Positions 5,434 to 63,902 of a stretch of 64,000 nt of DNA are shown piece after piece (the stretch's first letter is position 1; the number at the start of each line of letters is the position of its first letter). The DNA is taken from the NCBI GenBank assembly GCA_052327205.1, contig CM126225.1, positions 45,880,001-45,944,000 on the forward strand, written 5' to 3'. The position numbers were made by a program, and so were the translations under genes. Source of the stretch: Somniosus microcephalus (Eukaryota). The notes under the pieces were generated by a model. It saw nothing but the letters and a program-made list of their open reading frames with translations, had not been told where the DNA came from and did not search any database.

Positions 5434-6698
5434 AACATAAGAACATAAGAAGATAAGAATTAGGAGCAGGAGTAGCCCTCCTAGCCTGCTCCACCATTCA
5501 ATAAGATCATGGCTGATCTTCAACCTCAACTCCACTTTCCCGCCCAATCCCCGTATCCCTTGATTCCCCTACAGTCCAAAAATCTATCAATCTCAGCCTT
5601 GAATATACTCAACGACTCAACATCCACAGCCCTTTCAGGTAGAGAATTCCAAAGATTCACAATCCTCTGAGTGAAGAAATTCCTCCTCATCTCAGTCTTA
5701 AATGGCCGACCCCTTATCCTGAGACTATGCCCCCTAGTTCTAGACTCTCCAGCCAGGGGAAACAACCTCTCAGCATTTACCCTGTCAATCCCCCTCAGAA
5801 TCTTATATGATTCAATGAGATCAGCTCTCATTCTTCTAAACTCCAGAGTATAGGCCCAATCTACTCAATCTCTCCTCAAAAGACAACCCTCTCATCCCTG
5901 GGATTGATCTAGTGAACCTTCATTGCACCGTCTCTAAGGCATGTATGTCCTTTCTCAGATAAGGAGACTAAAACTGTGCACAGTACTCCAGGTGTGGTCG
6001 CACCAAAGCCCTATACAATTGTAGTGACTTCCTTACTCTTGTACTCCAATCCCCTTGCAATAAAGACCAACATGCCATTTGCTTTCCCAATTGATGGCTG
6101 TACCTGTACGCTAACTTTCTGTATTTCCTGTACGAGGACACCTAAATCTTTCTGAACACCAACATTTAATCGTTTCTCACCATTAAAAAAATATTTTTTC
6201 TATTCTTCCTACCAAAGTGAATAACCTCACATTTTCTTACATTATACTCCATTTGCCATCTTATTGCCCACTCGTTTAACCTGTCTATATTCCTTTGCAG
6301 GCTCTTTGTGTCCTCCTCACAGCTTACTTTCCCACCTAGCTTTGTATCATCAGCAAACTTGGATACATTGCACTCGGTCCCTTCATCTAAGTCATTAATA
6401 TAGATTGTAAATAGCTGAGGCCCAAGCACTGATCCTTGCAACACCCCACTAGTTACAGCCTGCCATCTGGAAAATGACCCGTTTATCCCTACTCTCTGTT
6501 TTCTGTCCGTTAGCCAATCCTCTATCCATGCTAATATATTACCCCCAACCCCATGAGTTATGTGGCACCTTATCGAATGCCTTTTGGAAATCCAAATGTA
6601 CTACATCCACTGGTTCCCCTTTATCTACCCTGCTAGTTACATCCTCAAAAAACTCTAATAAATTTGTCAAATATGATTTCCCTCTCATAAAACCATTC
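5434..6698 (-). mobile_element. CR1 LINE, 5'-truncated (RT C-terminal half and 3' tail)
   Basis: QGSVLGP, FADDTKL, RRNFFTQRIVNLWNSLP; (ttcttatg)n terminal repeat. Confidence 0.95.
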
Positions 6699-8271: not shown

Positions 8272-8622
8272 ACAAAGAACTTGCATTTATATAGCACCTT
8301 TCACAACCTCAGGATGTCCTAAAGTGCTTTACAATCAATGAAGTATTTTTGAAGTGCAGTCACTGTTGTAATGTAGCGATGTTGGTTGAGGGATAAATAT
8401 TGGCCAAGACCCTTCTTCCAACAGTGTCATGGGATCTTCTACGTCCACCTGAGAGGGCAGATGGGGCCTGGGTTTAATGTCTCATCTGAAAGACGGCACC
8501 TCCGACAGCACTCCCTCAGTACTGCACAGTGCCAGCCTAGATTATGTGCTCTGGAGTGGGGCTTGAACCCACAACCTTCTGACTCAGAGATGAGAGTGCG
8601 ACCCACTGAGCCATGGCTGACA
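8272..8622 (-). mobile_element. SacSINE1-type SINE
   Basis: Reverse complement of the 9844-10300 family. Confidence 0.85.
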
Positions 8623-14021: not shown

Positions 14022-15985
14022 AAACATAGAAACATAGAAGATAGGAGCAGGAGTAGGCCATTCGGCCCTTCGAGCCTGCTCCGCCATTCAATGAGATCAT
14101 GGCTGATCATCCAAATTCAGTGCACTGTCGCTGCCTTCTCCCCATATCCCTTGATCCATTTAGCCTTACGAAATATATCCAACTCTTTCTTGAATATATT
14201 TAATGAACTGGTCTCCACCACCCTCTGTGGCAGAGAATTCCACAGGTTCACCACTCTCTGGGTGAAGAAATTCCTCCTCATTTCAGTCCTAAATGGCCTA
14301 CCCCTTATCCTTAGACTATGACCCCTGGTTCTGGACTCCCCGACCATCGGGAACATCCTTCCAGCATCTAGTCTGTCCAGGCCTGACAGAATTTCATAGG
14401 TTTCGATGAGATCCCCTCTCAATCTTCTAAACTCCAGTGAGTATAAGCCCAATCGACACAATCTCTCCTCATACATCATTCCTGCCATCCCAGGTATCAG
14501 CCTGGTGAATCTTCGCTGCACTCCTTCCATGGCAAGAACGTCCTTCCTCAGATAAGGCGACCAAAACTGCACACAATACTCAAGGTGCGGTCTCACCAAG
14601 GCCCTGTACAACTGTAGCAAGATATCCTTGTTCCTGTACTCGAACCCTCTTGCTACGAAGGCCAACATTCCATTTGCCTTCTTAACCGCCTGCTGCACCT
14701 GCATGCTTACCTTCAGCGACTGGTGCACAATAACACCCAGGTCTCTTTGCACTTCCCCTTCACCCAATCTATTGCCATTCAAATAATAATCTGCCTTCCT
14801 GTTTTTGCCACCAAAGTAGATAACCTCACATTTATCCACATTATAGTGCATTTGCCATGTTTCTGCCCAATCACCTAACCTGTCCAAATCGTACTGGAAT
14901 TTCATGACCTCCTCCTCACAGCATACCCTCCCACCCAGCTTTGTGTCGTTTGCAAATTTGGAGATATTACATCCAATTCCCTCGTCCAGATCATTAAAAT
15001 ATATTGTGAACAGCTGCGGTCCTAGGACCGATCCTTGCGGTACCCCACTAGTCACTGCCTGCCAGTCGGAAAACGACCCGTTTATTCCAACTCTTTGCTT
15101 TCTGTCCACCAACCAGTTCTCTATCCAAGTCAATACCTTGCCCCCAATCCCATGTGCCTTAATTTTGCACGCTAATCTCTTATGCGGGACCTTATCGAAA
15201 GCCTTCTGAAAGTCCAAATACACCACATTCACTGGTTCTCCCTTATCTATTTCACCAGTTACATCCTCAAAAAATTCCAGTAGATTAGTCAAGCATGATT
15301 TACCTTTTGTAAATCCATGTTGACTTTGTCCGATCCTGTCACTGCTTTCCAAGTGCTCTGCTATTACATCTTTTATAATGGACTCTAGCATTTTCCCCAC
15401 TACCGATGTCAGGCTTACCGGTCTATAATTACCCGCTTTTTCTCTGCCACCTTTTTTGAATAGTGGGGTAACATTAGCTACCCTCCAATCCATGGGTACT
15501 GTTCCAGAGTCTATCGAGTTCTGGAAGATGACCAGCAATGCATCTACTATTTCTAGGGCCACTTCCTTAAGTACCCTGGGATGTAGATTATCAGGCCCTG
15601 GGGATTTATCGGCCTTCAGTCCCATCAATTTTCCTAACACCATTTCCCTACAAATACTGATTTCTTTCAGTTCCACCCTTTCATCAGACCCTATGTTCCC
15701 CGGCATTTCTGGGAGGTTATTTGTGTCCTCCTTTGTGAAGATAGAACCAAAATATGTATTTAGTTGGTCTGCCATTTCTTTGTTCCCCATTATAAATTCC
15801 CCCGATTCTGACTGCAAGGGACCTACGCTTGACTTCACCAATCTTTTTCTCTTCACATATCTATAAAAGCTTTTACAGTCAGTTTTTATGTTCCCTGCAA
15901 GCTTACTCTCATATTCTATTTTCCCTTTCTTAATTAATCCCTTTGTCCTCCTTTGTTGAATCCTAAACTGCTCCCAATCCTCAGG
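14022..15985 (-). mobile_element. CR1 LINE, 5'-truncated, open RT frame
   Basis: About 620 aa of uninterrupted ORF2 (KSPGPD, YRPVSLTS, YLDFQKAFD, GVPQGSVLGP, FANDTK); tail repeat at 14022. Confidence 0.97.
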
Positions 15986-16459
15986 ATTATTGCATAGCAA
16001 CATTGGTTGCTTTTTAATGCATTGCGTGTGATGCTCTTCGGAACCATTCAGAGAGACACGATAAGGCGCTGTATAAATGCAAAGTCTTTTTAAAGTTGTT
16101 AATGTGGTAGACACATTATATGCGTGCATCGTTGCGATTAAGAGGACCTCCTGCGCATTCACAGGCACACATTTTGCAAATACTTTACATACAATAACAA
16201 AATGCAAATAATCTGAACAGACCTGCCTTTTAGCGACGATAAGCATAAAAGCAAGACGGTTTGCTCATTTGCATAAGTGGCGTCGTTAGGTGTGAGCCGT
16301 GGCTCAGTGGGTAGCACGCTCGCGCCTGAGTCACAATGTTGTGGGTTCCAGTGCTTTCGCTTTGGGATAAAATCCTAATTATTACTTCGAAATAAAGGCT
16401 GATAGTGGGACCAGCGGTCAGAAATATAAAGTATTAAAAATTAAATTTAAATCACATAT

Positions 16460-22368: not shown

Positions 22369-23716
22369 TCATAAGAAAGAACATAAGAAATAGGAGCAGG
22401 AGTAGGCCATTCAATAAGATCATGGCTGATCTTCTACCTCATCTCCACTTTCCTGACTATCCCCATATCCCCTTAATATTAAAACATCTATCGATCTCTG
22501 TCTTGAATATACTCAAAGACTGAGCCTCCACAGCCCACCAGGGTAGAGAATTCCAAAGATTCACCACCCTCTGAGTGAAGAAATTTCTCATCTCAGTCCT
22601 AAATGGCCGACCCCTTATTCTGAGACTGTGACCCCTGGTTCTAGACTCCCCAGCCAGGGGAAACATCCTCCCTGCATCTACTCTGTCAAGCCCTGTAAGA
22701 ATTTTGTATGTTTCAATTAGATCACCTCTCGTTCTTCTAAACTCTAGAGAATATAGGCCTAGTCTACTCAATCTCTCCTCATAGGACAATCCCCTCATCC
22801 CAGGAACCAGTCTGGTGAACCTTCGTTGCACTCCCTCTATGGCAAGTATATCCTTCCTTAGGTAAGGAGGCCAAAACTGTACACAATACTCCAGGTGTGG
22901 TCTCACCAGGGCCCTATATAATTGCAGTAAGACGTCTTTATTCTTATACTCAAATCCTCTTGTAATAAAGGCTAACTTACCATTTGGTTTCCTAATTGCT
23001 TGCTGTACCTGCATGTTAATTTTCAGTGATTCGTGTTCAAGGACACCCAGGTCCCTCTGAACGCCAACATTTCCCAATCTCTCACCATTTAAAAAATACT
23101 CTGCTTTTCTATTTTTCCTACCAATGTGGATAACTTCACATTTCTCCACAATATATTCCATTTGCCATGTTCTTGCCCACTCAATTAGCCTGCCTATATC
23201 CCCTTGAAGCCTCCTTACATCCTCCTCACAACTTACATTCCCACCCAGCTTTGTATCATCAGCAAACTTGGATATATTACATTTGGTCCCCTCATCCAAA
23301 TCATTAATGTAGATTGTGAATAGCTGAGGCCCAAGCACTGGTCCTTGCGGTAGCTCACAATTTGCAACCTGCCAACCCGAAAATGACCCGTTTATTCCTA
23401 CTCTCTGTTTTCTGTCCGTTAACCAATCCTCAATCCCTGCTAGTATATTACCCCCAATCCCATGAGCCCTAATTCTGTTTAATAACCTCTTGTGTGGCAC
23501 CTTATCGAAGGCCTTCTGAAAATCTAAATACACCACATCGACTGGTTCCCCCTTATCTATTCTGCTAGTTACCTCAAAAAACGAACAGATTTGTCAAACA
23601 TGATTTCCCTGTCATAAAGCCGTGTTGACTCTGCCCAATCCTATTATTATTTTCTAAGTGTCCTGTTATCACGTCCTTAATAATAGACTCTAGCATTTTC
23701 CCCACTACTGATGTCA
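22369..23716 (-). mobile_element. CR1 LINE, 5'-truncated
   Basis: 359-aa RT frame with YLDFQKAFD and FADDTK. Confidence 0.95.
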
Positions 23717-26189: not shown

Positions 26190-27465
26190 ACTGGTTGTGG
26201 GACAAACTTGGTCGTGTTTGACAAACTTGATTGAATTTTTTGAGGTAACAAGGAGGGTAAATGAGGGTAGTGTGTTTGATGTAGTGTATATGGATTTTAG
26301 CAAGGCTTTTGATAAGGTTCCACATGGCAGACTGGTCACGAAGTTAAAAGCCCATGAGATCCAGGGCAAGTATCAAGTTGGATTCAAAACTGGCTCGGAG
26401 ACAGGAAGCAGAGGGTAATGGTTGATGGGTGTTTTTGTGACTGGAAGGCTGTTCCCAGTGGGGTTCCGCAAGGCTCAGTACTAGGTCCCTTGCTTTTTGT
26501 GGTATATATCAACGATCTTGACTTGAATATAGGGGGTATAATTAAGAAGTTTGCAGATGATACCAAAATCGGCTGTGTGGTTGATACTGAAGAAAGAAGC
26601 TGTAGACTGCAGGAAGATATCAATAAATTTGTCAGGTGGGCAGAACAGTGGCAAATGGAATTAAATCCGGAAAAGTGTGAAGTAATGCATTTGGGGAAGG
26701 CCAACAAGGAAAGGGAATACACATTAAATGGTAGGACAATGAGTAGTGTAGAGGAACAAAGGGACCTTGGAGTGCATGTCCACAGATCCCTGAAGGTAGC
26801 AGGCCAAGTAGATAAGGTGCTTAAGGCGGCATACGGAATGCTTGCCTTTATTAGCCGTGGCATAGAATACAAGAGCAGGGGGGCGGTTATGTTTCAACTG
26901 TATAAAACACTAGTTGTTAGGCCTCAGCTAGAGTACTGCATGCAGTTCTGGTCACCACATTACAGGAAAGATGTGATTGCACTAAGAGGGTACAGAGGAG
27001 ATTTACAAGGATGGTGCTGGGAGTAGAGAATCTTAGCTATGAGGAAAGACTGGATAGGTTTTCCTTGGAACAGAGGAGGCCGAGGGGAGACCTTATTGAG
27101 GTGTATAAAATTATGAGGGGCATAGATAAAGTGAATAGAAATGACCTATTTCCCTTAGCAATGGGGTCAAAAACCAGGGGACACAGATTTAAAGTAATTG
27201 GTGGAAGGTTTAGAGGGGATGAGGGGGGAAATTTCTTCACCCAGAGGGTTGTGGGGGTCTGGAACTCACTGTCTGAAAGGGTGGTAGAGGCAGGAACCCT
27301 AGCCACATTTAAAAAGTACTTGGAAGTGCACTTGGGATGTTCTAACCTGCAGGGCCACGGACCAAGAGCTGGGAAGTGGGATTAGGCTGGATAGCTCTGT
27401 TGGGTGGTGCGGACACGATGGGCCGAAATGGCCTTCTCTGCTGTAACTTTCTATGATTCTATGAT
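26190..27465 (+). mobile_element. CR1 LINE, 5'-truncated, frameshifted
   Basis: SCLTNLIEFFE, YMDFSKAFD, FADDTK; (attctatg)n tail. Confidence 0.95.
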
Positions 27466-52262: not shown

Positions 52263-53012
52263 GGGCCGGGTATTCCAATCCCTACGGGTGGGTACGCATT
52301 GTATACCCACCTGTAGGGACATAGGAAATGCGCAGTGCATGCCTGAAGCCGGCATGTGCTGGAAACCTGCATTTCCTATCCGTCAAGAAAGCTCTCGACA
52401 GATCCGCCGGCTGCCCAGGAGAAGGGCCGCTGCGGGCGGATAGTTCCGCTTTTTGGAGACCGTCCACCTGCAGAAAACACTTACAATTCTTGTGCCTGGT
52501 AAAAGCAAGCATAAGGCCTGCTTTCACCAGGATAAGAGTTGAAAAAAGTAAAAGTTGTTTAATTTCCACTGATTTATCATTTAAAAATACTTTTAAAAAA
52601 GTTTTTGTAGCCCCGTAAGAAACCTAATTATTTTTTTCAAAAATTTAAAGTTTTGTTTAAAAGAGCTAATTTATTAGACAAGTCATTTAAAAAATGTGAT
52701 TTAAAAAAAAATTTTATTTAAAGTTTTATGTACTATGTTTTGGGGTGATCGCCATTCATATATTTGACAGGTCTTCCTGTCAAGTGTATGAAGGGAGATT
52801 CCCTTCTTTGATTGGCTCCCCATGACCCATGTGATCTCAGGGACGCTGCAAACTACCTGCACCTCTGGGATACGAGGGCCCTGCGCACCGGTAGTTTGGA
52901 GAAGCCCAGAAGCGGAACTGTGCGCGTCCCGGGAGCCCTCATGTAAGGGCGCAGATTTTTCCAGATCGCAGGTCTCCGCCCGCGGGAGGCATGCGATCGG
53001 AATATCAGGGCC
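52263..53012. mobile_element. Non-autonomous Harbinger-like element
   Basis: TIRs gggccgggtattcc / ggaatatcagggcc; 3-bp AAT duplication. Confidence 0.82.
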
Positions 53013-53140
53013 AATATTGGGGTAGTTGGAATCCCCCATGATTATTATGCTATGTTTTTTACTCATTTCCCTAATTTGTCTGCATAGTTCTTCCTCCAAT
53101 TCTCTTCCACTATTAGGTAGTCTGTAGACTACGCCTATTA

Positions 53141-57736: not shown

Positions 57737-57833
57737 ACACCAAACTTGGACCAGTTTCAAGTAGACCAACCCTAAAACATAGTGGAATAGTATACCATAT
57801 ATAATAAATAACCTCACTTTACACAATGCTTAT
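57737..57833. repeat. 97-bp direct repeat, left copy (partner 59870-59966)
   Basis: acaccaaacttggacc...acacaatgcttat; about 6 substitutions between the copies. Confidence 0.95.
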
Positions 57834-58500
57834 ATCCTCTTCTGCCATCCAGACACGCCTTGGTGCACCATCTTGCTGTCCGGCGGAGGAGGGGGTCCCC
57901 AATGGAGGGCTCTCTACGCGGAAGTCCTCCCTTTATCTATTGAGGACCTGGCCTGGAGGGTGTTGCACGGAGCAGCCGCATGCAATATGGTTTTAAATAG
58001 GTTCACGGACTCCCAGGCCGCCTGCCTTTTCTGCGGCCTGGAGGAGTCCGTGTTTCATGTTTACTTAGAATTTGAGAGGTTGCAGCCCCTCTTTCATTAC
58101 TTGAAGGGGCTGCTCCTCGATTTTTGGCTGCACTTCAGTCCCACGCTCTTGATCTATGGTCACCCGGTGCGGAGGGGAGTGGGCAGGTTGGAGGACCTCC
58201 TCGTGGGACTGCTCCTGGGCCTGGCCAAGAAAGCCATTAATTGGTCCAGGCAGTGGGCGGTCAAGGGGGTCGTTCAGCCAGATTGCCTGCCTCTCTTCCG
58301 CGGCCATGTTCGCGCCCGGGTGGCCCTGGAGATGGAGCACGCGGTGTCCGCCGGCACGCTTGAGTATTTCCGCGACCGGTGGGCGCCGCGGGGATTGGAG
58401 TGCATCATCAACCCAGCCAACACAATTTTAATTTGATTTGTTTAAGTTTCATTTAAAGTTTTATTAGTTACAGTTAAATTTGTTAAAAGTTCAAAAGAGT
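57834..58500 (+). mobile_element. Tx1-clade non-LTR retrotransposon 3' fragment, copy 1
   Basis: PDTPW, DLAWRVLHGA, CLFCGLEESVFHVY zinc-binding motif, LLLGLAKKAI, FRDRWAP; ends aaaagagt. Confidence 0.88.
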
Positions 58501-58513
58501 ACACAATGCTCAT

Positions 58514-59183
58514 ATCCTCGTCTGCCATCCAGACACGCCTTGGTGCACCATCTTGCTGTCCGGCGGAGGAGGGGGTCCCCAATGGAGGGCTCTCTACGCG
58601 GGAGTCCTCCCTTTATCTATTGAGGACCTGGCCTGGAGGGTGTTGCACAGAGCAGCCCCATGCAATATGGTTTTAAATAGGTTCACGGACTCCCAGGCCG
58701 CCTGCCTTTTCTGTGGCCTGGAGGAGTCCGTGTTTCATGTTTATATGGAGTGTGAGAGGTTGCAGCCACTCTTTCACTGCTTGAAGGGGCTGCTCCTCGA
58801 TTTTTGGCTGCACTTCAGTCCCACGCTCTTGATCTACGGTCACCTGGTGCGGAGGGGAGCGGGCAGGTTGGAGGACCTCCTTGTAGGCCTGCTCCTGGGC
58901 CTGGCTAAAAAAGCCATCAATTGGTCCAGGCAGCGGGCGGTCGAGGGGGTCGTTCAGCCAGATTGCCTGCCTCTCTTCCGCGGCCATGTTCGCGCCCGGG
59001 TGGCCCTGGAGATGGAGCACGCGGTGTCCGCCGGCACGCTTGAGTACTTCCGCGACCGGTGGGCGCCGCGGGGACTGGAGTGCGTCATCGATTCGGATAA
59101 CATAATTTTAATTTGATTTGTTAAGGTTCATTTAAAATTTGATTAATTTACAGACAATTTGTTTTTAGTCCAATCAGAAGAGT
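58514..59183 (+). mobile_element. Tx1-clade 3' fragment, copy 2
   Basis: As copy 1; preceded by the spacer acacaatgctcat. Confidence 0.88.
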
Positions 59184-59196
59184 ACACAATGCTCAT

Positions 59197-59869
59197 ATCC
59201 TCGTCTGCCATCCAGACACGCCTTGGTGCACCATCTTGCTGTCCGGCGGAGGAGGGGGTCCCCAATGGAGGGCTCTCTACGCGGGAGTCCTCCCTTTATC
59301 TGTTGAGGACCTGGCTTGGAGGGTGTTGCACAGAGCAGCCCCATGCAATTTGGTTTTAAATAGATTCACGGACTACCAGGCCGCCTGCCTTTTCTGTGGC
59401 CTGGAGGAGTCCGTGTTTCATGTTTACATGGAGTGTGAGAGGTTGCAGCCCCTCTTTCACTGCTTGAAGGGGCTGCTCCTCGATTTTTGGCTGCACTTCA
59501 GTCCCACGCTCTTGATCTATGGTCACCCGGTGCGGAGGGGAGCGGGCAGGTTGGAGGACCTCCTCGTAGGACTGCAGCTGGGCCTGGCCAAGAAAGCCAT
59601 TAATTGGTCCAGGCAGCGGGCGCTCGAGGGGGTCGTTCGGCCCGACTGCCTGCCTCTATTCCACGGCCACGTTCGCGCCCAGGTGGCCCTGGAGATGGAG
59701 CACGCGGTGTCTGCCGGCACGCTCGAGGCCTTCCGCGACCGGTGGACGCCGCGGGGACTGGAGTGCATTATCACCACCGGGCACCAAATTTTAATTTAAG
59801 TTGTTAAGTTTCATTTAATGTTTTTTTTTAAGTTACAGTTTATTTGTTTATGGTCCATACCAAAAGAGT
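59197..59869 (+). mobile_element. Tx1-clade 3' fragment, copy 3
   Basis: As copy 1; preceded by the same spacer. Confidence 0.88.
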
Positions 59870-59966
59870 ACACCAAACTTGGACCAGTTTCAAATAGAGC
59901 AACCCTAAAACATAATGGAATAATATACCATATATAATAAATAACCCCACTTTACACAATGCTCAT
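59870..59966. repeat. 97-bp direct repeat, right copy
   Basis: Matches 57737-57833. Confidence 0.95.
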
Positions 59967-60003: not shown

Positions 60004-61220
60004 GCGTCACCCTTGGCTCAGTGGTAGCATTCTTGCTTCTGAGTCAGAGGGCCTTCAACCCCAGTCTAGACTAGAGACTTGAGCACATCATCAAGGCTGA
60101 CACTTCAGTGCACTATTGAGGGAGTGCTGCACTGTCAGAAGTGCCATTTTTCAGGTGAGATGTTAAACTGAGGGTCCATCTGCCCTCTCAGGTGGATTTA
60201 AAACAATCCTATGGCACTATTTGAAGAAGAGCAGGTGAGTTCTCTCCAGTGTCCTGGTGAACATTTACCCCCCAACCAACATCACCAAAACACATCATGG
60301 CCCTGAATTTCCAATTGGAGGCTTCCTGCGGGCGGATGCCTCCAATCAGAATAAAATCTACGAACTTGCCTGCTGGTTCCATAGATCCCAAGGCTTGCGA
60401 TCCTGGGCTTCTCCTCTTCGAAATGCGTAGAGGCCCAGGTATCCCAGGGGTGCATGCGGTTCGCAAGACTTTCCTGGGATCACGTGGGCCAGGCGAACCA
60501 ATCAAAGAAGGGAATCCCCATCACACTTTTGACAGTTCCGTATGCACAGAACTGTCAAAAGTATGAATGGGGATCACAGTTAAAAACACACTAAAACATT
60601 AAATAATTTTTTTATTACCTATTTAAAATTAATTAAAATGCCATTTAATTAAATATTTTAAACAAAAATTTAATTTTTGGAAATTTAAAAAAAATGTTTT
60701 TATGAAGCTAAAAATAAACTTACCTTTTTTAAGGGTATTTTTAATTTATAAATTAGTGATCAAATTTTATTTTTTTTAATTCTAATGCTGGTAAAAGCAG
60801 GCCTTACGCAGGCATTAGACTTGACAGGCTTTCAGTGGGCGGAAGCTGTGCAAAAAGCGCAACTCTCCGCCCGCGGAGGCACTTTTCTTGGGCATGTGGA
60901 TGATCTGTCGAGAATTCTTGACAGACCGCAAGTGTCAGGTATCAGCACATGCGCTTCACCTGCCTGAAACCGGCACTTGCGTGGCCCCTGCGGGTGCGTG
61001 CGCACCTCGTACCCACCCGTGGGGGTCGAAAAATACGGCTCATTATCTGGACATTTATCTTATTTCTGTTTGTGGGACCTTGCTGTGCGCATATTGGCTG
61101 CCACATTTCCCTGCACTATTACAATGATTGCACTTCAAAAAAAAAGTATTTAATTGGCTGTGAAGTTTTTTGGGATGTCATGAGGTCGTGCAAGGCGCTA
61201 TATAAATGCAAGTTCCTTTT
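60004..61220 (+). mobile_element. SacSINE1-type SINE split by a MITE (60004-60298 and 61042-61220)
   Basis: SINE sequence resumes at attatctgg after the insert. Confidence 0.85.
60299..61041. mobile_element. Non-autonomous Harbinger-like element, same family as 52263-53012, opposite orientation
   Basis: ggccctgaatttcc start; shared blocks acgggtgggtacg and tctcgacagatc. Confidence 0.8.
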
Positions 61221-61890: not shown

Positions 61891-62720
61891 CACTGGCGGC
61901 AGCAGCGAGAGCGGCCCTGGGTGGAGACGGAGCGCGGAGACCGAGGAATTAAAGAGCGGGGAGCAAGAGCAGCCCAGTCACACCAGCGGCAGCAGTGAGA
62001 GCGGCCCTGGGTGGAGACTGAGCGTGGAGACCGAGGAGTTAAAGAGCGCGGAGCGAGAGTGGCCCAGACACACCGGCGGCAGCAGTGAGAGCGGCCCTGG
62101 GTGGAGACGGAGCGCGGAGACCGAGGAGTTAAAGAGCGGGGAGTGAGAGCAGCCCAAACACACCGGCGGCAGCTGTGAGAGCGGCCCTGGGTGGAGACAG
62201 AGCGCGGAGACCGAGGAGTTAAAGAGCGGGGAGAGAGAGCGGCCCAGACACACCGGCGGCAGCAGTGAGAGCGGCCTTGGGTGGAGACTGAGCGCGGAGA
62301 GCGAGGAGTTAAAGAGCGGGGAGCGAGAGCGGCCCAGACACACCGGCGGCAGCAGTGAGAGCGGCCCTGGGTGGAGATGAAGCGCGGAGACCGAGGAGTT
62401 AAGGAGCGGGGAGCGAGAGCGGCCCAGACACACCGGCGGCAGCAGTGAGAGCGGCCCTGGGTGGAGACTGAGCGCGGAGATCGAGGAGTTAAAGAACGGG
62501 GAGCAAGAGCGGCCCAGACACACCGGCGGCAGCAGTGAGAGTGGCCCTGGGTGGAGACTGAGCGCGGAGAGCGAGGAGTTAAAGAGCGGGGAGTGAGAGC
62601 GGCCCAGACACACCGGCGGCAGCAGTGAGAGTGGCCCTGGGTGGAGACTGAGCGCGGAGAGCGAGGAGTTAAAGAGCGGGGAGTGAGAGCGGCCCAGACA
62701 CACCAGCGGCAGCAGTGAGA
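61891..62720 (+). repeat. 90-bp tandem monomers (9 full plus 20 bp) in a CR1 5' region
   Basis: Units start at 61891, 61981 ... 62611, 62701. Confidence 0.97.
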
Positions 62721-62952
62721 AGTAAAAAGTAATTGAAATGTGACGTCACCAGAAAGCAGGTAAGTGATTGGTTGGTGAGTATTTCTCTTGCTTTTTTCCA
62801 AACTTAATTTTTGTGGTTTAAAGTTTCTATGGTCTCTGTTGTGTAGCGGGGAGTGGTAGTAAAGAAGGGCTCTTGAATATATCATTTAATTGTAGTGTAA
62901 TTAGTGGTATTGATTTGATTTAATTTAATTTGAATTAATTAAAGGGTAATTC

Positions 62953-63902
62953 ATGGCAAGACAGCTCGGCCCCGTGGCATGCTCTTCCTGCACTATGTGG
63001 GAAATCAGGGACACTTCCTGTGTCCCTGTCGATCATGTGTGCGGGAAGTGTATCCAGCTGCAGCTACTGACAGACCGCATTGTGGCGCTGGAGCTGCGAA
63101 TGGATACATACAAAGCATTCGCGATGCTGAGGATATCGTGGATAGCACGTTTAGGGAGTTGGTCACACCACAGGTAAAGGCTGCACAGGCAGGAAGGAAA
63201 TGGGTGACCACCAGGCAGAGTAGTAGGCACAGGCAGGTAGTGCAGGGGTCCCCTGTGGCCATCCCCCTTTCAAACAGTTATACCACTTTGGATATTGTTG
63301 AGGGAGATGGCTTATCGGGGGAAGGCAGCAGCAGCCAACTTCCTGGCACCATGGGTGGTCCTGCTGCACAGGACGGGAGGAAAAAGAGCGGGAGAGCTAT
63401 AGTGACAGGGGATTCTATTGTAAGGGGAATAGATAGGTGTTTCTGCGGCCGCAAACGAGACTCCAGGATGGTATGTTGCCTCCCTGGTGCAAGGTTCAAG
63501 GATGTCTCGGGGCGGCTGCAGGGCATTCTGGAGGGGGAGGGTGAACAGCCAGTTGTCGTGGTGCATATAGGTACCAATGATATAGGTAAAAAACAGGATG
63601 AGGTACTAAAAGCTGAATATAGGGAGTTAGGAGGTAAATTAAAAAATAGGACCTCAAGGGTAGTAATCTCAGGATTGCTACCAGTACCACGTGCGAGTCA
63701 GAGTAGAAATAGAAGGATATTTCAGATGAATACATGGCTAGAGGAATGGTGCAAGGGGGAGGGATTCAAATTTCTGGGACATTGGAACCGGTTCTGGGGG
63801 AGGTGGAACAAGTACAAACTGGACGGTTTACACCTGGGCGGGACCAGAACCGATGTCCTAGGGGGAGTGTTTGCTACTGCTGTTGGGGAGGGTTTAAACT
63901 AA
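62953..63902 (+). pseudogene. CR1 ORF1 (Cys zinc finger, coiled coil, SGNH/GDSL esterase-like) with one frameshift near 63105
   Basis: CSSC...CGKC; GDSIVRG, CLPGA, VHIGTND, DGLHL; the 62953 frame joins the 62979 frame at QSIRDAE. Confidence 0.88.

Follow-up and report, generated by a model that had tools for sequence, protein, structure and literature searches.

The window, a stretch of 64,000 nucleotides from the genome of Somniosus microcephalus, carries at positions 57737-59966 three 5'-truncated copies of a Tx1-like LINE, which lie on the plus strand in the order X-E1-t-E2-t-E3-X. The left X (57737-57833) is a 97-bp duplication of unique host DNA, which starts at an ACAC target and ends 13 nt past a second target, TTT/ACAC. 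The last 13 bases of X are t, which at 57821-57833 is found in its native context (ttt/acac), is the best-matching target of the array and has one mismatch to the inner copies of t. E1 (667 bp, 57834-58500) consists of the C-terminus of ORF2, with a weak match to zf-RVT, and of 3' UTR. It is followed by a 13-bp t spacer (58501-58513), by E2 (670 bp, 58514-59183), by the second inner copy of t, also 13 bp (59184-59196), and by E3 (673 bp, 59197-59869). E3 is the most diverged unit and was probably the first resident. E2, which lies between both spacers, is probably the youngest and would have been inserted between the two others. The right X (59870-59966) passes directly into unique flanking DNA. 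The two copies of X differ at 6 of 97 bases, and X is otherwise unique, with 2 matches in the whole genome. Tandem Repeats Finder misses this array, whose period exceeds 500 bp.

A preliminary description of the window, made from its sequence, had proposed this architecture of 667-673 bp units, and the coordinates re-derived here agree with it, apart from the one mismatch to t in the left X. It had also reported a common start base followed by about 90 nearly identical nucleotides. The three units do begin at one base, which corresponds to position 6482 in a natural copy of 7153 bp; a single difference separates E1 from E2 over the first 88 nt, and E2 and E3 are identical over 105 nt. The 3' ends diverge as it had claimed, with the C-termini INPANTILI, IDSDNIILI and ITTGHQILI and with 75-79% identity among the last 120 nt of the siblings. 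Every 3' end is aagagt joined to ACAC, a pattern with 3 matches in the window against 0.08 expected. The description had asked whether the 5' breakpoint occurs elsewhere: the junction pattern is found twice in the genome, both times at this locus, and 0 of 223 other units start within 8 nt of it. Contigs from short reads back the outer junctions, the inner junctions and the unit count being outside contig coverage. With runs of small word share set aside, the joint between the left X and the 5' end of a unit is present in three of four independent short-read runs (organisms F, G and A), and a contig of run X19 that spans the tail of E3, X and the right flank has 0 differences.

The units correspond to the final ~670 nt of a 7.15-kb LINE, a length taken from a natural copy, in a genome of 6.4 Gb. 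Natural long copies encode an ORF1 with a zinc knuckle (PF00098) and an ORF2 with an endonuclease (PF03372) and a reverse transcriptase (PF00078), and the C-terminal zinc motif of ORF2 matches PF13966 only below its cut-off. ORF2 is 53% identical to the Xenopus Tx1 149-kDa protein over 98% of 781 amino acids (870 bits, E 3e-256), which makes Tx1 closer than human L1 (218 bits). Xenopus Tx1 is the best named relative, and further named matches of ORF2 come from sturgeon, turtle and cartilaginous fishes. The domain set, the similarity of ORF2, for which one named Tx1 protein was compared, and the target preference all fit the Tx1 clade, and the LINE is best described from its sequence as Tx1-like. 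In 72 single copies, a sample that was partly selected for ACAC, the target consensus is C-N-T-T/A-C-A-C, with T at -1 in 68 copies and A-C-A-C in 72, 71, 71 and 69 copies. A sister family, whose copies end in aagagg and have a spacer starting with GAC, is present as an array of four units with a common 5' point on the minus strand of locus L212 (1576-2512, oriented), so that stacking at the same junction is not confined to one family.

The duplication at the target is 13 bp in 31 of the 72 single copies and 12-15 bp in 56 of them. The 13-bp t, which has the modal length, is therefore the ordinary duplication of the family, and the 97-bp X is the exception. X may derive from two endonuclease sites used together or, alternatively, from an insertion that was completed on an allele with a resident at t. 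Two single copies (L048 and L189) have duplications of 39-59 bp that end ~12-14 nt past a second, ACCC-type site and resemble X.

Neighbouring units have tails from different donors. Over the last 110 nt, 60 of 63 neighbour pairs show at least 10 base differences, and the median of 25 compares with 24 for unrelated copies. When 59 pairs were tiled in steps of 60 nt (the sister family, full-length copies and one pair with an atypical end were left out), a dispersed copy was closer than the neighbour in 224 of the 245 tiles from the third onward, and the neighbour was closer in 4. Direct alignment gives the same result in the window, as the preliminary description had anticipated: over its last 400 nt, E2 has 97.5% identity to a dispersed copy and 87-90.5% to its siblings, and the last 120 nt of E1 are 93% identical to a dispersed copy against 78-79% to the siblings. 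The tail of E1 as a whole has 93-95% identity to a dispersed subfamily, and the best dispersed match of E3 has 90-92.5%. E2 was also said to resemble E3 in its 5' half and E1 in its 3' half, and this is true on comparison; the likeness of E2 and E1 at the 3' side is due to their origin from subfamilies younger than that of E3 and not to exchange between them. Likeness of neighbours over the whole length that exceeds the likeness to dispersed copies, which is the signature of a TE-derived satellite or of tandem duplication, was found in only 3 of 63 pairs. The same 3 of 63 are near-identical by the by-locus unit table, and locus L174 holds a two-unit repeat, so plain duplication happens too.

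Arrays of this kind are common in the genome. Other tandem matches, each with its own shared start point, were already present in the first genome search. One young tail class was searched for with an exact pattern, which found 64 3' ends at 61 loci, and all of these were examined: 23 ends are within same-junction arrays (19 with such a neighbour on the right, and 4 as the last unit) and 41 are single. Reading by eye adds two broken arrays, which brings arrays to 22 of the 61 loci. Besides the window there are ~30 unrelated array loci in the 1.13 Mb examined, where arrays reach 7 units and each has its own 5' point. This DNA contains 233 units, with 63 same-junction neighbour pairs. Distinct 5' truncations between neighbours, as expected from independent double insertion, are not the pattern: 12 pairs are listed as different, about half of them being parsing splits, which leaves ~6 real exceptions. 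The chance of hitting the duplication of an existing copy is ~0.2-4% by a rough model without hot sites, and varies with the motif and with the copy number (6,500-30,000). Some arrays are cut by locus edges or by later insertions, and in at least 9 of 17 arrays the sample was found through a young tail. Exceptions with a different 5' point are seen at L184 (last unit), L205, L197, L035 and L216; in L184 the odd unit is the rightmost one and has a young tail, as expected for an insertion without a downstream resident. Near-identical loci on C22/C23 and C35/C17 (L066, L067, L070, L071 and L076; L096-L098, L102, L103 and L106-L112) are copies carried in amplified segments.

Neighbours share their 5' junction and often a little more. 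The ratio of observed to expected mismatches between them is 0.28 over the first 25 nt and 1.07 over the last 100 nt. Where the right unit has a rare allele, the left unit has it too in 19 of 45 cases at 1-50 nt, 15 of 106 at 51-150 nt, 4 of 109 at 151-300 nt and 3 of 173 beyond 300 nt, counted on a unit table that merges units with identical tails and flanks. In units of at least 450 nt this sharing is 27/68, 2/43, 1/92 and 4/85 by quarter, so that the copied tract is short and does not scale with unit length. In the window, 12 alleles with a frequency of at most 0.10 (five at zero) are common to E1-E3 within 143 nt and none later, the first ~143 nt of E1 thus having the haplotype of the locus, and E2 and E3 have three further rare alleles in common, up to unit position 266. 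Judged by these alleles, the tract derived from the resident would usually be shorter than ~60 nt, and in the window ~143 and 266 nt. E3 has five alleles at positions 106-179 that are absent from E2, inside the tract that E2 supposedly copied. Many short units have only the junction itself in common with their neighbours. In the first 60-nt tile of the 59 pairs the neighbour is closer in 17, a tie is found in 8 and a dispersed copy is closer in 34, and in those 34 pairs the junction is therefore the one sign of templating. Extra bases at the junction recur through arrays, and the units of L199 share a 12-nt deletion. Near the 5' end, singletons have 1.13 rare alleles per 100 nt against 0.67 elsewhere (p=0.048) and array units 1.36 against 0.62; the excess in singletons leaves room for replacement of a tail without growth of an array.

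The preliminary description had also proposed polarised growth, which is found as a tendency across arrays. The apparent age of a tail was read from its identity to dispersed copies, a low identity meaning an old-looking tail. Of 33 arrays, 25 have their oldest-looking tail at the right end, 6 have it at the left end (three of these being ties) and 2 have it at an inner position. Single steps agree with this polarity in 40 cases against 11, with 9 ties. Among the 15 arrays with at least three units, the youngest-looking tail leads in 9 and lies inside in 6, and no array ends with it. The window departs from strict polarity, as its middle unit E2 looks youngest, and the likely order of insertion, read from tail identities, is E3, then E1, then E2 between them. 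The native left t has TT before ACAC and the inner copies have GT, which would explain the leftward bias. Growth would be mostly leftward, with the leftmost t keeping the best target context, and an inner t would be used sometimes, as by E2.

These arrays probably arise when target-primed insertion recurs at the duplication that adjoins a resident copy, the new cDNA being joined through pairing with the first bases of the resident. In this mechanism, a bottom-strand nick made by the endonuclease at ACAC would prime reverse transcription of the RNA of a new donor, and the cDNA would reach or pass the point at which the resident is truncated. The end of the top strand, which extends slightly into the resident, would pair in register with the cDNA, and surplus cDNA would be trimmed. 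Alternatively, the cDNA may invade the resident and copy through its junction. The product would be t, the first bases of the resident and the body of the new donor, placed upstream of an intact resident. Both forms of joining predict the same sequence, and the short tracts slightly favour annealing of the top strand over invasion. Repeated target-primed insertion by different donors, with completion on the resident copy, had been proposed from the window, and it is supported here with a refinement: the part copied from the resident is usually short and most of each unit is new donor. Units are separated by one duplication and growth is on the 5' side, as in R1 arrays, and a short tract is copied from DNA adjoining the site, as in templated insertions. 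Loci L039 and L065 have duplications of 503 bp and 213 bp that start at an upstream ACAC, end at the junction of the resident and keep the resident; priming further upstream with the resident retained would produce them. The right copy of the 97-bp X has no resident after it, so that the pairing mechanism needs an extra assumption for X.

The length of the units bears on how truncation occurs. Array units are not shorter than singles (p=0.48) and match the resident in length even at 600-1200 nt, with nearly the entire unit derived from the new donor, and a model in which only cDNAs that are long enough are captured fits poorly (P ~0.001-0.003, assuming that old residents had the length spread of today's singles). 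Together these two results hint that 5' truncation is set at joining and not by the polymerase falling off.

Other routes to the same arrangement were considered. Units could have been duplicated first, by slippage or unequal exchange at the 13-bp repeats, and the upstream unit overwritten later by cDNAs primed at an inner t. Such an order would account for the 3 of 63 near-identical pairs and the two-unit repeat in L174, agrees with the mild excess of rare alleles at the 5' ends of singletons, and is helped by the use of an inner t as target for E2. It would, however, require overwriting that reached nearly to the junction in ~95% of duplicates. Old tails mostly persist in the rightmost units (25 of 33), even though a t follows these as well. 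In the window, exchange between the two X copies of 97 bp would yield X spacers and not t, and the duplications in L039 and L065 start at an upstream ACAC. We regard this order of events as unlikely. A jump at the RNA level, in which the reverse transcriptase switches from the donor RNA to a read-through transcript of the locus spanning flank, t and resident, is quite unlikely. Each of the ~30 unrelated loci would need a timely sense transcript, with a switch close to the junction every time, although the same mosaic and junction are expected from it and full-length copies do sit behind a likely promoter of a target repeat.

Independent insertions at a hot site, ending at the same base through microhomology between target and element, draw on the re-use of a duplication as target in R1 and SINEU-3 and on the many short units that lack a templated tract. 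Of 30 arrays, 24 were scored for microhomology at the junction: it does not exceed 1 nt in 21 of them, which is no higher than in singles, and the three large values belong to arrays in which parsing missed the true last unit. The extra junction bases, the 12-nt deletion of L199 and the rare alleles common to units are also against this reading, which is very unlikely. Local decay after tandem duplication, for which the AT-rich and variable 3' UTR may be quoted, a defined short non-autonomous element and misassembly are together extremely improbable. Decay is contradicted by tails that are up to 98% identical to dispersed subfamilies, a defined element by the 5' start of the window array, which is unique to the locus, and misassembly by the outer junctions in independent contigs and by the recurrence of the pattern at ~30 other loci. 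These are the three outcomes that the preliminary description had named as refuting it.

Insertion with pairing to the resident combines steps that are partly known. The arrays of R1 arise by insertion into the 5' duplication of a resident, with one duplication between copies, and its 5' junctions are made precise when the cDNA anneals to the DNA of the target (Stage and Eickbush 2009, PMC2718515). R1 arrays differ from those of the shark in lying in rDNA and in annealing through upstream 28S sequence carried on the RNA, according to the available text of that article. SINEU-3 also forms tandems around a duplication (Kojima 2015, PMC4494074), its defined length being unlike the shark units. 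Copying of an arbitrary truncation point of the resident is seen in the shark arrays and is not described for R1 or SINEU-3 in the accessible parts of these two articles (PMC2718515, PMC4494074). In Drosophila, LINE dimers mostly have distinct truncations, as in 6 of 10 jockey dimers, which is evidence for independent insertion (McGurk and Barbash, 10.1101/158386). Such double-insertion dimers are, like the shark arrays, tandem non-LTR copies with a duplication at the junction made by transposition, whereas the shark arrays share the truncation in 63 pairs against ~6 real exceptions (10.1101/158386, available text). L1 occasionally copies short nearby templates, and these events are rare, 22 in one study, and use non-L1 templates (10.1101/2024.08.27.596794); the shark arrays, in contrast, are the outcome in ~30% of one young tail class and are repeated at one site.

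The Tx1 clade, with Xenopus Tx1L, crocodilian Tx1-9_AMi and Tx1-Mar, is like the shark LINE in its APE endonuclease, reverse transcriptase, zinc motif and sequence-specific target. Tx1-9_AMi targets Harbinger transposons (Kojima 2015, PMC4494074), and the shark LINE likewise prefers a site inside a Harbinger-like repeat. Its target is a short dispersed motif, unlike those of the Tx1 families described in the main text of PMC4494074. Arrays of truncated copies with a shared junction are not reported for Tx1 families in that main text, the supplements of which could show similar tandems. A literature search in which subscription journals were poorly covered, and which left Repbase reports outside, found no report of routine same-junction arrays with different tails, and the available text of PMC11702581 and PMC3868326 has nothing specific to them. 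Chimeras of L1 with endogenous copies are reportedly the subject of Gilbert et al. 2005. Tandem insertion into a duplication (R1, SINEU-3) and rare templated L1 insertions are thus known steps, and a routine, junction-fixing version was absent from the literature covered by this search. Polarised addition that leaves an ordered record is also found in CRISPR arrays and in the telomeric HeT-A/TART stacks, which are analogies only, as they have no machinery in common with the shark arrays and there is no sign of host function in the latter.

The 5' truncation of most LINE copies has long called for an explanation, and same-junction arrays offer a simple assay of truncation at joining. The arrays also give the internal order of subfamily activity without a clock, as a rough age-ordered record, and they represent a route to tandem transposable element arrays without unequal exchange. 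They call for caution, as LINE copies can be mosaic near their 5' ends, and a precise 5' junction set by downstream homology is of interest for gene insertion based on retrotransposons. The chances are about even for a broader proposal, by which homology-guided 5' joining is the normal route of this Tx1 lineage. The lineage would be attracted to its own residents at least ~8-fold above chance, would reverse transcribe far beyond its truncations and would have its truncation set at joining. Thousands of loci would then be ordered recorders of subfamilies, and full-length copies would be parked behind a Harbinger-like promoter by the same means.

Full-length copies at C2 and C6b lie 99 bp upstream of a stretch that matches their own first ~64 nt. 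The host repeat at these sites is abundant (~4039 candidates in the genome), has a Myb/SANT ORF with PF13873 above its cut-off and is Harbinger-like. The match suggests that the 5' end of the LINE may have been captured from this repeat, with borrowing of its promoter. Pairing to the downstream 64-nt match would explain why full-length copies are found 99 bp upstream of it in the Harbinger-like repeat, and suggests that the same pairing could be the normal route of full-length insertion. The Myb/SANT repeat is a preferred target also at L042:6948-7850, C6b, C12, L168 and L173. A second target repeat, LTR-like by eye, has its TT/ACCC site downstream of a TATA-like box and carries full-length copies of one tail subfamily; it is found at L114:559-1160 and 8312-8393 and in L040, L044, L047 and L049. 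Tandem full-length copies are located at G000 C12:54271646-54286330 and C6:110936980-110957199. One such tandem pair is 99% identical with a 184-bp spacer and another is 87% identical with a 99-bp spacer, and the C12 array is preceded by a very short tail fragment.

Other repeats are present in the window. A 90-bp tandem repeat of 9.2 copies (61891-62720) lies inside a 332-aa minus-strand frame without a Pfam match, and the adjoining 319-aa frame (62943-63902) has an SGNH/GDSL domain, which we take to be typical of CR1-type ORF1. One repeat occurs twice in opposite orientation, at 52393-53013 and 60298-60913, with the copies ~75-85% alike. Other fragments of reverse transcriptase (PF00078) are found at 14117-16264, 22457-23593 and 26358-27026.
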